Source: Candidatus Eiseniibacteriota bacterium
Lineage (GTDB): Bacteria > Eisenbacteria > RBG-16-71-46 > DASYSL01
Direction: 5' to 3'
Assembly: GCA_031431875.1 (NCBI GenBank)
Contig: JANPEF010000106.1
Coordinates: forward strand, 1 to 64,000
DNA length: 64,000 nt
Shown here: piece by piece, positions 14,227 to 18,800 of the stretch
Layout: each line of letters begins with the position of its first letter
How positions within the stretch are numbered: the stretch's first letter is position 1
Notes under the pieces: model-generated
What the model was told of the DNA's origin: nothing
Databases searched by the model: none
What the model saw: only the letters and a program-made list of their open reading frames with translations
Program-made: the position numbers and the translations under genes

Positions 14227-15892
14227 GCAGCTTCGTCAGTTCCTCCGGCGCGACGGGCTTGACCAGGTGGGCGTCGAACCCGGCCTCGCTCGACTTGCGT
14301 CGGTCCTCGTCCTGGCCCCAACCGGTGAGGGCGACGAGGAGCATGCCCTCGCCCCACGTCTGCTTCCGGATCGCTCGCGCCACCTCGTAGCCGTTCAGGC
14401 GGGGGAGCCCGAGGTCGAGAAGCACGACTTCGGGCCGGAACGCCTCGGCAACGGCGAGCGCCTCGATGCCGTCGTGGGCCACCCGGGTGTCATTGCCGGC
14501 GAGGTCAAGGACGGTCGCCAGCGACTCGGCGGCATCCACATTATCGTCGACCACGAGGATGCGGCGGGCGATTGCGCTTGCCCTCGTCGGATTGATCGGA
14601 ACCGGCTCCGGCAGGGCGGCGGAGCGGGGTGCGAGGGGCAGGCGGACGATGAACTCGGTGCCCCGCCCGAGGCCGGGGCTCCTCGCCTCGACGGCGCCGT
14701 CATGCAACTCGACCAGTGACTTGACCAGGGTGAGCCCGATTCCGAGCCCGTTGATCGAGCGTTCGAGCGACAGGTCGACCTGCATGAACAGTTCGAAAAC
14801 GCGCATGAGCTGATCGGCGCCGAGGCCGATCCCGCTGTCCTGCACGCGGATCACGACGGAGTCGCCTTCCACCTCGAGGCCGACCCGGACGAAGCCGCCT
14901 TCATCCGTGAACTTGAGCGCGTTGTTGAGCAGGTTGTCCACGACCTGGGCCAACCGGGCGGGATCGGCGTCAAGATAGACCGGCGCGGCCGGCAAGGTGA
15001 CCGTCAACTCGATGCTCCGGTGTGCGGCCTCGGGGCGGGCGGCATCGACGGAATGGGCGATCAGGGCGGCGGCCTCGATCCGTTCCCGACGCAGCTCGAT
15101 GCGGCCCCGGGTGATGCGGCTGACGTCGAGCAGGTCGTCGACGAGCCTCACCATGTGTCCGACCTGTCGCTCCATCACTGCGGCCGCCGCGGCGACGGGC
15201 GGGCTGTTCGCGCCATTCAGCCGGATGATCTCCAGTGAGTTGCGCAGCGGGGCGAGCGGATTGCGCAGCTCGTGCGCCAGCATGGCCAGGAACTCGTTCT
15301 TTCTGCGGTCCGCCTCGGACAGCTCGGCAGAGGTCTGGCGCAGCTCGTCCGCCATCTCCCGCTGTTCGGTGATGTCGGTGTTGGTCCCGAACCAGCGCGT
15401 CACGATGCCTTTCGCATCGCGGATCGGCTGCGCCCGGGAGAGGAACCAGCGATAGCCGCCGTCCCGGCCGCGCAACGGAAACGTGTCCTCCCAGAGTTCG
15501 CCCGTGTCCCAGGAGTGCTGGAGGCGGGCGACCACGCGATCGAGGTGGTCGGGGTGATGGACCTTGGTCCAGCCCCAGCCCTGCATTTCCTCCTGCGTCG
15601 TGCCGGTGTAGTCATACCAGCGTCGGTTGAACCAGTAGATCCATCCCCTTGCGTCGGCGGTCCAGGCGAACTGGGCCATGTTGTCGGCGAGGGTGCGGAA
15701 GCGCTCCTCGCTCTCGCGCAACTCGACGTTCAGCCGCTCCGTCGCCCGGCGGGAGTGGACCGCGTCCTCCATCAGGTTGAGCGCCGCCCGGCGCGCGTCC
15801 TCGGCCCTCCGGAGAGTCGTCACCGGATCCGCCGCGGATGCGGGGGTGTTCCGCGGGGGTGGGGCTGCAGGGTCAGGCCGAGGCGAACTCAT
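14192..15892 (-). CDS. PAS-PAC hybrid histidine kinase with C-terminal receiver domain
   Basis: PAS (WYDYTG..HPDH..YRWFL), LAMLAHELRNPL, NLLNNALKFT, DSGIG, GLGIGL, receiver (VVDDN, LLDLGLP, LVKP). Confidence 0.93.
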   Translation of the reverse strand: MSSPRPDPAAPPPRNTPASAADPVTTLRRAEDARRAALNLMEDAVHSRRATERLNVELRESEERFRTLADNMAQFAWTADARGWIYWFNRRWYDYTGTTQEEMQGWGWTKVHHPDHLDRVVARLQHSWDTGELWEDTFPLRGRDGGYRWFLSRAQPIRDAKGIVTRWFGTNTDITEQREMADELRQTSAELSEADRRKNEFLAMLAHELRNPLAPLRNSLEIIRLNGANSPPVAAAAAVMERQVGHMVRLVDDLLDVSRITRGRIELRRERIEAAALIAHSVDAARPEAAHRSIELTVTLPAAPVYLDADPARLAQVVDNLLNNALKFTDEGGFVRVGLEVEGDSVVIRVQDSGIGLGADQLMRVFELFMQVDLSLERSINGLGIGLTLVKSLVELHDGAVEARSPGLGRGTEFIVRLPLAPRSAALPEPVPINPTRASAIARRILVVDDNVDAAESLATVLDLAGNDTRVAHDGIEALAVAEAFRPEVVLLDLGLPRLNGYEVARAIRKQTWGEGMLLVALTGWGQDEDRRKSSEAGFDAHLVKPVAPEELTKLLTARSAGGGER

Positions 15893-18800
15893 GGTTCGTT
15901 CCCCGCCTCGTCGACCTCGCGCCTCGACGCGTTCGCCTGATCCTCGCGATCCGCCGACGCGGGTTCGAAGTCGAGGCTGAAGGGCGGCGGCTCGCCGTGC
16001 CGGCGGCACAGCGCATTGATCTCCTGTTTCAACTCGATCATGCGCAGCTCGCGCCCGACCGCCATCTCGTTGAACCGGTTCAGCTCATCCACCTGCGCCT
16101 GGAGCTCGATCCGATGCGTCCGGAGAGCATCTTCGGTGTGTCTGCGCACGGTGACGTCCTCGATGGCGAGAAGGATCCGCCCCGTTGCCAGTCCCGGGTC
16201 GACGACGCGACGGGCGTTGAGCAGCAGGGTCCGCGTACCCAATGGCCCGAAGTCGCGCTCAAGCTCGAAATCCTCGATACTGCTGCTCATCGGCAGGATT
16301 GCCTCGAGCAGCTCGCGGAGGCGCGGGATGTCCCACTGGCTGGCGCCCAGTTCGAACAGAACCTTGCCCAGGGTCTCCGCGGGCGAGGTTTCGAAGTTGC
16401 GATAGAACGAGGCGTTGGCGCTCTCCACGCGAAACGTCGAATCGAGCACCAGCAGCGGTTCGCGCACGGTCGCGATCGTCTGCTCGGCGAGATCGCGGGC
16501 GGCCCCGACGGCCTGTTCGCTGCGCTTGAGCTCGTCGATGTCGACCAGCACCAGCACCGCGCCGTCCACCCGATTGTCGAGCGTGAGGTAGGGACGCACG
16601 CGCAGCGAGTGCCAGCGCCCGGCCCGGTCGCGCACCTCGCACTCCTGTTCACGCACCGAAGCGATGACCTCCGCGGCCAGGGCCCCCGGTTCGATCGGGA
16701 CTTCCCCCCCGGATGCCGAGTCCGCGACCATCGTGAGATGAAGACGCAGCTGGTTGATCGGCCGTCCGATGTCTCCTGCCAGCAGCTCGAATTGTTTCTC
16801 CGCCTGCGGGCTGAAGCGACGGATGACCAGATCGCGTCCGAGGAGCACGACGGCCAGGCGGGAGGAGGTCTGCAGGTTGATCAGGTCGTTGTTGACCAGA
16901 TTGAGCTCGAGGTTGCGATGGTTCATCTCGTCGTTGACCGTGATCAACTCCTCGTTCGCCGACTCCAGTTCCTCCTTCGAGGTTTCCAGCTCCTCGTTGA
17001 CGCTCTGCAGTTCCTCATTGGCGGACTGGATCTCCTCACTGGCCGCTTGCAGTTCCTCATGGGAAGCCTCGTGTTCTTCCTGAATCGACTGCAGGTAGTC
17101 GCGAGTCTCCGCCAGGTCGCCCTCGAGTTCGGCGATGCGTCCGGATTCCTGCCGGGGCTCGGACGGCGTGACCGCGGCCGCGGGCTCGTCCAGTGCCGGG
17201 CGAGTTCCGCGACCGCCGTCACGGGCGATTCCATCGGCTTCCCCGAAGAGGATCAGGAAACAGGGCTCACGCAGATTCCTGAGCGGAATGACTTCCAGGT
17301 TCACAGTGCGGTCCAGACCGTCCTGTCGGATGCGGACCTTGTCCCGGCGCGCCACCCGCATGTCCTTCCGGGCTTCCTGGAGGGCGGCGCGGAGGGGCAG
17401 CATCAGACCCTCCCGCGCCATCTTGAGCACATCGAAGGTCGCCTTGCCCGCGGGCGGCTCGAGGTAGGCGCCGGTGAGCCCGCGGAACTGCAGCACCTGC
17501 AAATCAGAGTTGATGAGCACCCCGGGAGGGGCGAACTTGCTGACCGTGATCCGGTCCGCCTCGCGCTGCGCATTGAACTCGTCCCGCGGTTCCGCTGATG
17601 GCTCCGCGAGTTCCGCTCGCCGCATGGGGAGCGGAGGCAACGCCGCGCGCGAAGCCTGCGTGCCCTGCTCCAGACGGCTCGTCGGGTGCGGGGCCTGGAT
17701 GGGCGCATCCTTTCGCGCATAGATCTTCCATCGCTTGTCCACCGGCACGAACAGGTCGCTGAATCCGCCAATCGATTCCGAGGCGCCGAGCAGGAGGTAG
17801 CCCCCGGGCTTGAGCGCGTAGTGGAACGTGGGCATCGCCCTCTTCTGCAGGCTCGGCTCGAGATAGATCAGCAGGTTTCTGCAACTGATCAGGTCCAGGC
17901 GCGAGAACGGCGGATCGCTGATCAGGTTTTGCCGCGAAAAGACGACCATCTCGCGCAGCATCTTGGTGACGCGGTAGCCACCATCCTCCTCGACGAAGAA
18001 GCGGCGCAGCCGCTCCGGCGAGAGATCCTGGGCCAGGTTGCGTGCGTACAGGCCATGCCGCGCCTTGTCCAGCAGCGCGCCATTCAAGTCGGTGGCGAAG
18101 ACCTGGAGTCGGCGCATTTGCGGTGCCGGCGCCTCCGCCTCCGCCTCCGCAAACGTCATGGCGATCGAGTAGGCCTCCTGCCCGGTGGAACAGCCAAGCA
18201 CCCAGACACGGATCGGATCGTCCGTCTTCTGGCGGAGCAGGCGGGGCAGGATCTCGTGCTTGAGGGCTTCGAACATTTCCGGATTGCGGAAGAAGCTGGT
18301 CACGCTGATCAGGACGTCGGAATACAGGGCGTCGAGTTCCTGCGGGTTGCCCTTGAGAAAGCGCGCATACTCGTCCAGCGTTTCAAGCTGGCTCAGGACC
18401 ACGCGCCGGTTGACGCGGCGCTGCATGGTGGCGGACTTGTAGAGGGAAAAGTCCACGCCGGAGTGGTTGCGCAGGGCGATCAGGATCTGCTTGTAGCTGG
18501 TCTCCGCCAGCGCGCCTGCTCCGACCCGGCCGCGCGTGTCGCCGCCCGGCGCGGCCTCGGCGTGCGCCTGGTCGGCTCCGATCGAGGGTGACCCGTGCCT
18601 CTCCGAGGTGAGCGGGGTCGCATCGTCCGCATGTTCCGTGTCCGCGGCCCGATCTCCCTCCGGGTGCGTCGGGAGGTCGACCGGGTGGGCGGCCACGTAG
18701 GGGTGCCTGGCGATCCGGGCCAGCTCCTGCGCAATGGCCGCAGGCGTCATGATCAGGTCGACGCAGCCCGCTGCCACGGCACTGCGCGGCATCGAGTCAT

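Follow-up and report, generated by a model that had tools for sequence, protein, structure and literature searches.

A conserved motif pair on output-less sensors and separately encoded kinases: a candidate docking module for two-component signalling

The CheBR and kinase gene pair

The DNA analysed here (the window) is a 64,000-nucleotide stretch from a Candidatus Eiseniibacteriota bacterium (assembly GCA_031431875.1, contig JANPEF010000106.1, positions 1 to 64,000). On its minus strand, a gene for a CheB-CheR-PAS protein (CheBR) is followed by a gene for a hybrid histidine kinase. Each of the two proteins carries a short conserved motif, the C motif ('plug') near the end of CheBR and the N motif ('socket') ahead of the PAS domain of the kinase. 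The features of the pair are as follows.

15889..19371, minus strand: CheBR gene, 1160 residues, the kinase-less input half, CheB-CheR-coil-PAS-PAS (open reading frame and Pfam scan; inferred ATG start)
18721..19245, minus strand: CheB methylesterase domain, CheBR residues 43-217 (PF01339, E 7e-53)
17725..18495, minus strand: CheR methyltransferase, with CheR_N at residues 293-343 and SAM-binding CheR at residues 357-549 (PF03705; PF01739, E 2e-52)
16882..17148, minus strand: Glu-rich coiled coil, CheBR residues ~742-830, with EELQ..EEIQ..EELQ..EELE repeats (sequence and coiled-coil matches)
16141..16878, minus strand: two PAS domains just ahead of the C motif, PAS_10 at 832-946 and PAS_4 at 970-1077 (PF13596, PF08448)
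16006..16083, minus strand: C motif ('plug') LNRFNEMAVGRELRMIELKQEINALC, CheBR residues 1097-1122, a terminal putative helix where a DHp domain would begin
15889..15892, minus strand: ATGA stop/start overlap of CheBR and kinase (sequence)
14192..15892, minus strand: soluble hybrid histidine kinase, 566 residues, the output half, PAS-HisKA-HATPase-REC
15761..15796, minus strand: N motif ('socket') ARRAALNLMEDA, kinase residues 33-44, in a putative helix leading into PAS
14225..15301, minus strand: kinase core and receiver, HisKA, HATPase_c and REC (PF00512, PF02518, PF00072)

CheBR is a CheB/CheR fusion, with both domains on one chain and the strings GASAGG, VQHL and GTATDG present. The Pfam scan found no HisKA or HATPase domain in CheBR, which is therefore not a CheBR-histidine kinase fusion. 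As the original prediction had described, the protein ends in a conserved stretch, with the core GRELRMIELK, and a 38-residue tail follows this motif. The downstream protein is a class I hybrid histidine kinase carrying the H-box His, HATPase_c and a C-terminal REC domain (PAS 63-179; HisKA 198-263, with AHELRNPL; HATPase 310-421; REC 445-556), and its N motif, with the core AALNLMED, is preceded by a Pro/Ala-rich leader. No transmembrane segment was found in either protein (highest 19-residue Kyte-Doolittle mean 1.29 for the kinase and 1.51 for CheBR). The ATGA overlap and the lack of a transmembrane segment in the kinase, both claimed earlier, were borne out. The overlap likely couples the translation of the two genes. 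Because uvrA (named from its sequence) converges on the kinase end, the unit comprises just this gene pair. Pattern and profile searches of the 3.75 Mb genome in six frames each gave a single occurrence per motif, in the CheBR and kinase genes; among 30 kinase-like open reading frames (ORFs) in this genome, the sole N-motif carrier is the neighbour of the sole C-motif gene.

The Glu-rich coil of CheBR (window 16882-17148, minus strand) contains repeated EE/EQ pairs, a pattern that we take to resemble chemoreceptor methylation helices. Judging from these pairs, the coil is a possible self-methylation target of CheBR.

We also considered a single CheBR-kinase gene broken by a frameshift or an assembly error, one of the outcomes that the original prediction had named as fatal to it. 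In favour of a broken gene, CheBR-kinase fusions do exist (P0165), and the ORFs of the pair, which lie in different frames, share 4 nt. Against this, a contig from run X1 (possibly the source run) covers 15300-16700 with 0 differences, and two overlapping contigs of sample X4, from the same study, tile the CheBR/kinase junction with 0 differences and 0 gaps. In G001, a genome of the same genus, the region is syntenic (81-94% identity) and the split is kept with other letters, via a GTGA overlap; there, the CheBR tail is different and shorter, and the kinase is ~760 bp longer (two PAS domains) immediately after the N motif. Furthermore, a homologue search with a 60-residue piece containing the C motif gave 231 matches, and the motif lies at most 60 residues from the C-terminus in 119 of the 120 homologues listed. 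Given the concordant contigs of two samples and the split in G001, we rejected this explanation as extremely improbable and regard the split as genuine.

Two motif families and their association

The C homologue search was word-based and hence biased toward close variants. A kinase core (HisKA/HATPase) was present in one of the 120 listed homologues, and a HATPase profile matched 0/91 C-motif ORFs in the loci described below and 0/150 top representatives. Proteins with the C motif bear PAS, GAF, REC, dCache, CHASE, HAMP, SBP, MASE, PocR or CheB/CheR domains. CheBR is thus a minority input and the C motif is not specific to it, as CheB/CheR fusions make up 12 of the 120. A C profile built from 62 sequences retrieved 15,854 representatives of 50% identity clusters at E<=0.001 and 2,210 at 1e-10, among 1.84 billion, and the weaker of these matches may include plain coiled coils. 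At the DNA level, a C-motif pattern matched at least 128 stretches from several phyla plus several archaeal groups. The taxa carrying the motif include Patescibacteria, Deltaproteobacteria, Nitrospirota, Omnitrophota, Bacteroidota, Verrucomicrobiota, Acidobacteriota, Chloroflexota and archaea. The recurrence of the motifs in several phyla, which the original prediction had stated, was confirmed by homologue listings, DNA pattern and profile search.

The codons of the C motif vary freely among the matching stretches, indicating conservation at the protein level. A DNA-level element, or a hidden ribosome-binding site ahead of the C-motif Met, was rejected on account of these free codons and of an Arg/Gly/Glu codon usage equal to background, with AGG in 16/128.

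In several proteins (P0230, P0231, P0233, P0236, P0238, P0240, P0241, P0245 and P0366-P0370), a C motif within the chain is followed by a low-complexity linker, then by a PocR-like or other sensor and lastly by another C motif at the end; these proteins resemble pairs of plug-in sensors strung together by fusion. One contig (G071:C20:4714-42128) holds five C-motif genes across 21 kb and one N-motif gene 16 kb beyond. At L008:5875-6081 and 7544-7825, two short ORFs (68 and 93 residues) contain little besides the C motif, and at L044:5780-5941 the N repeats are split across two reading frames; these oddities may represent decay, assembly error or free plug peptides.

The N motif, in turn, is mainly found on kinases. 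By manual count, 93 of 109 homologues of the N piece have a HisKA, HisKA_3, HWE, HisKA_2 or HATPase domain. The N-terminal position given in the original prediction is not typical: the motif lies in the first 80 residues of 24/107 homologues, and in the others it falls within the coiled-coil stalk, either where this links sensor domains or immediately ahead of the kinase core. The 54 N-motif ORFs in the loci comprise 48 kinases, one GGDEF-EAL protein, one PAS-only protein and four ORFs cut by the locus end. The occurrence of the motif on this GGDEF-EAL protein (L011:3003-5969) and on an HD-domain protein (P0222) indicates outputs beyond kinases. A, N and D are invariant across 55 aligned N motifs, an invariance that is partly built in, as the rows were picked by pattern or profile.

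Fourteen kinases are built of 2-5 N repeats plus a core of HisKA or HisKA_2 with HATPase, one of them also with REC, and all 37 spacings between repeats are 21 residues. They occur in Bacteroidota, Acidobacteriota, Myxococcota, Chloroflexota, a Methanotrichaceae archaeon and others (L027:5599-5851, L018, L060, L064, L031 and nine more loci; also L152). No sensor domain was found in these 14 kinases, while the 12 C proteins scanned upstream of repeat kinases are all output-less PAS strings ending in one C subtype. At these loci, an input-less kinase abuts an output-less sensor.

For the analysis of gene order, 80 of the at least 128 stretches had flanks; five duplicates were removed and two loci in which the motif is not terminal (L059 and L065) were dropped, leaving 73. 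A strict N pattern was set before the loci were seen, and the downstream and upstream sequences were of similar length (398 and 348 kb). The pattern was found downstream on the same strand in 44/73 loci, upstream in 1/73 (a REC-domain false match) and on the opposite strand in 0/73. An N profile added eight loci that were not in its training (scores of 12-23 bits), so that 52 of the 73 loci, from bacteria and archaea, have the N motif downstream. The motif is carried by 47/67 kinases downstream of the C gene versus 0/12 upstream. Among the 21 loci without a nearby N motif, 17 of the genomes have one elsewhere. Moreover, several C genes (2-4) precede one single-motif kinase in 12 loci.

We then counted both motifs in two phylum samples that were not selected by motif and from which the centre genome was left out (matches to C counted up to E 1e-4, those to N up to 1e-3). 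In the phylum of a Geobacteraceae genome (150 genomes), 15 genomes have both motifs, 9 have C only, 1 has N only and 125 have neither; the corresponding numbers in the phylum of a Parcubacteria genome (120 genomes) are 11, 6, 1 (a match at a contig start) and 102. When the samples are pooled, 26/28 N-bearing genomes also have C. The N motif lies on the same contig and strand, less than 4 kb downstream of C, in 13/15 and 11/11 genomes with both, and for 20 of these 24 the DNA was fetched and the motifs were read. Among 61 relatives, both motifs occur only in G000 and G001. The co-occurrence and adjacency called for in the original prediction were thus found, far above background, in the 73 loci, the two phylum samples and the 61 relatives.

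Some of these counts weigh against the docking proposed below. The N motif is not nearby in 21/73 loci, and 4 of these 21 genomes (incomplete metagenome-assembled genomes) have no N match genome-wide. In the phylum samples, 15 of 41 C-positive genomes are without an N match, the N profile being short and weak. The Fisher p values (1e-13 and 1e-10) are overstated, because the sampled genomes are kin and not independent.

A putative docking pair and competing explanations

The results above establish the make-up of the genes, the size of the family, the adjacency and co-occurrence of the motifs and the exchange of domains on either side of them. On this basis, we propose a conserved, co-inherited pair of motifs, terminal on output-less sensors and in the stalk of kinases. 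Its members probably dock onto one another, and the sensor would thereby adjust kinase activity in trans. In a quick tree built from 103 kinase cores, in which some N-negative rows may hold diverged motifs, the N-bearing kinases require 15 label changes, at least 8 of them forced by well-supported branches, and they span HisKA, HisKA_2, HisKA_3 and HWE. N-motif kinases are polyphyletic. Across 45 cognate pairs, the similarity of C motifs tracks that of N motifs (r 0.37) and not that of kinase cores (r 0.007). When the repeat subfamily is left out (31 pairs), the partial r is 0.26 (0/2000 permutations), compared with 0.08 for an N-flank control (296/2000). This is a Mantel-type test with few pairs, which falls short of demonstrating contact; its outcome indicates a linkage of motif to motif, not of motif to kinase core.

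Two points here count against docking: a C-flank control is non-zero (0.15, 17/2000), and gene order and co-variation would also result from a pair that travels as a single DNA block or works via a third protein. One alternative is that the two motifs make no contact. The C motif would then only cap the dimers of stand-alone sensors, the N motif would be a variant signalling helix, and the two would be co-inherited as a mobile cassette. Both motifs do sit in linkers resembling signalling helices, their patchy distribution (2/61 relatives) suggests cassette movement, and in the repeat subfamily they are merely ~150-300 bp apart. However, the linkage survives 0.5-5 kb of varying domains between the motifs as well as exchange of the kinase core or family; sensors would be left without output and repeat kinases without input; and a plain coil needs no invariant polar residues. 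We consider this alternative very unlikely.

Natural fusions in which C is joined to N by a linker of about 25-30 residues were identified (P0237 and P0276) and count in favour of docking. They are rare, however: a search for more gave five relatives of P0276, none with N beside C, and in these five the internal C motif is followed by PocR where N would be expected, which speaks against docking. In P0026, P0067, P0267 and P0327, N is followed by C in one helix without a kinase, and L156 contains an ORF with N near residue 528 and C at its end; from their motif order, these proteins are candidate relays or adaptors. They also fit a third partner that binds both motifs or links one to the other, be it a soluble adaptor, a scaffold, a polar anchor or a protease adaptor; sensor and kinase would then be co-localised and not directly docked. 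Such a partner would account for co-occurrence, adjacency and operons with many sensors and one kinase without direct contact, and N-then-C proteins and strings with two C motifs fit scaffold tags. Yet C and N do not resemble one another (HHalign 12.7%, with the lead-in coil alone aligned), so that two different sites would be required on the partner; the operon in the window contains just the two genes, and in many loci a C gene borders an N gene. A third partner is accordingly an unlikely explanation.

Repeat number does not follow sensor number, a further point against docking: in the fetched DNA, 14/14 repeat kinases have one upstream C gene, and where several C genes occur (12 loci) the kinase bears a single motif. 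The idea of one socket per sensor species is unsupported by these counts.

The residue patterns bear on how docking would occur. Heptad positions of the C motif are L-10, F-7, x-3, R0, M4, L7, I11 and L14, with a second hydrophobic stripe at V-2, L2 and I5. In the N motif, hydrophobic coil positions are -6, 1, 4/5, 8 and 15, and A0, N3 and D7 (with E6) lie on one outer stripe. The mean core charge is +2.3 for C and -1.4 for N. The opposite charges and the invariant residues off the coil core speak for docking. From this heptad periodicity, we infer that each stretch is a helix within a parallel, dimeric coiled coil. The terminal helices of the two sensor chains would grip the kinase dimer stalk from outside, giving a 2:2 four-helix bundle like that of class 1 polyketide synthases (PKS), in which the net-negative A-x-L-N-x-x-E-D stripe would meet the net-positive R-E-x-K/R-M-x-E-L-K helix with its second hydrophobic stripe. 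A twist or register shift of the sensor coil, or its binding and release, might then pass down the stalk to the DHp domain. The 21-residue repeat retains the same coiled-coil face and so suits lateral, multivalent binding. For the window system, the input would be the methylation state of CheBR or the ligand state of its PAS domains, and the output would be phosphorylation of the kinase REC domain.

The position of the C motif is also compatible with subunit exchange, in which the C helix would be a His-less remnant of DHp helix 1 that pairs 1:1 with a single kinase chain, in a heterodimeric coiled coil at the N motif, and displaces the partner of that chain, an inhibition like that of RetS on GacS. 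The motif stands exactly where a DHp domain would start, after a shared 'EEL..N.ELE.F' lead-in, and the best HHalign register sets VGRELR on AHELR (1.35% probability). RetS replaces the DHp homodimer interface of GacS (PMC12148439). Against exchange, the HHalign probabilities against DHp are not significant (1.35% for C and 1.7% for N, the latter to helix 2), and tandem sockets of 21 residues with invariant residues off the a/d core would better suit lateral binding. Subunit exchange therefore appears improbable, and lateral docking of the sensor helices remains our preferred reading.

The original prediction had envisaged the re-assembly of a split sensor/kinase. Many partner kinases have their own sensor domains, and an input added to a kinase fits better than a split gene re-assembled. 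We tentatively extend docking to a broader proposal, which may well prove too wide: a universal portable helix pair of Bacteria and Archaea that would provide a third mode of two-component wiring beside gene fusion and chemoreceptor arrays. It would connect any sensor or receiver to any kinase or cyclase and many sensors to one kinase, with kinases of 2-5 sockets acting cooperatively or counting, and with socket-then-plug proteins forming relay daisy chains.

At window 7813-11114 (plus strand), 3 kb off, lie a separate PAS-kinase, a sigma-54 activator and a lone receiver, all without either motif; the lone receiver could be a phosphotransfer partner. Upstream of CheBR, an ORF of ~241 residues (window 19546-20271, minus strand) has no Pfam match, a signal-peptide-like start and a C-terminal SWGSLKATYR tail, presumably a sorting-like tail of secreted proteins in such genomes.

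Relation to known systems and significance

Known families did not account for either motif. Searches of Pfam and NCBIfam with 55 members per motif gave at most 6 bZIP_2 or 5 NosR matches, weak and of coiled-coil type, and none for the window pieces; there was no match for either motif in the PDB or among named Atlas families, where the neighbours are unnamed. No description of the motif pair was found in the literature, also when the motif strings were searched, with supplements and most subscription journals outside the coverage. The motif pair is real, widespread and apparently unnamed.

In the way it is proposed to work, the pair is like PKS docking, H-NOX and RetS-GacS systems, yet it belongs to none of them. 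In class 1 PKS docking domains, a four-helix bundle arises when a pair of C-terminal helices clamps onto a parallel coiled coil (PMC9113145). As in DEBS2/DEBS3 and PikAIII/PikAIV, a C-terminal helix of an upstream polypeptide and a helix of a downstream dimer would join co-linear proteins, the geometry in our case being a prediction. Unlike those domains, the pair serves signalling and is carried by sensors and kinases instead of the termini of acyl carrier proteins and ketosynthases, the socket is usually internal and repeatable, and there is one conserved pair as opposed to many orthogonal ones (PMC9113145). Sequence kinship with class 1 PKS domains was not detected, with no PDB match below E 0.26 and no Pfam match.

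Stand-alone H-NOX sensors regulate an enzyme encoded in their own operon, either a kinase or a diguanylate cyclase (PMC4436077). The systems described here similarly have an output-less sensor next to a separately encoded kinase (or a GGDEF/EAL enzyme, as in L011), with control being predicted. H-NOX systems use one fixed sensor fold (PMC4436077), whereas in the present families many different folds (PAS, GAF, REC, dCache, CHASE, PocR, MASE, SBP and CheBR) bear the same short motif at their end. No H-NOX or NosP FIST domain was found in the window proteins or in 36 C proteins scanned. With RetS-GacS, the pair would share a second signalling protein that makes a helical contact in the stalk/DHp region of the kinase dimer; RetS is a full kinase-like protein and binds DHp itself, unlike the C proteins, which are without DHp and HATPase, and the N motif is upstream of DHp (PMC12148439).

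The CheB and CheR methylation enzymes of the window protein and the many output-less sensors also recall chemoreceptor arrays. In arrays of chemoreceptors, CheW and CheA, many output-less sensors feed one kinase. The kinases described here differ in being class I (HisKA, HisKA_2, HisKA_3 and HWE), and no MCP signal domain, CheW or CheA was found in the two window proteins or in 54 N proteins.

Archaeal regulators of the REC-(PAS)n type, and others of the REC-PAS-GAF type, have been listed without an obvious output and with partners called unknown (PMC5847659). REC-PAS proteins ending in a C motif, including the archaeal L054, are among our loci; the available text of that census names no such terminal motif or partner (PMC5847659). 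If direct docking is true, it would supply an output for thousands of 'orphan' PAS/GAF/REC/Cache proteins and an input for sensor-less kinases, also in Patescibacteria and in archaea, where the partners of output-less regulators are given as unknown (PMC5847659). Partners of sensors and kinases would become predictable from sequence, and a natural connector of 25 residues that suits kinases of several families would offer a ready-made component with which to rewire two-component signalling. With its two genes, an input that can be separated and a kinase output that can be read, the CheBR case opens the purpose of CheB-CheR fusions to testing.

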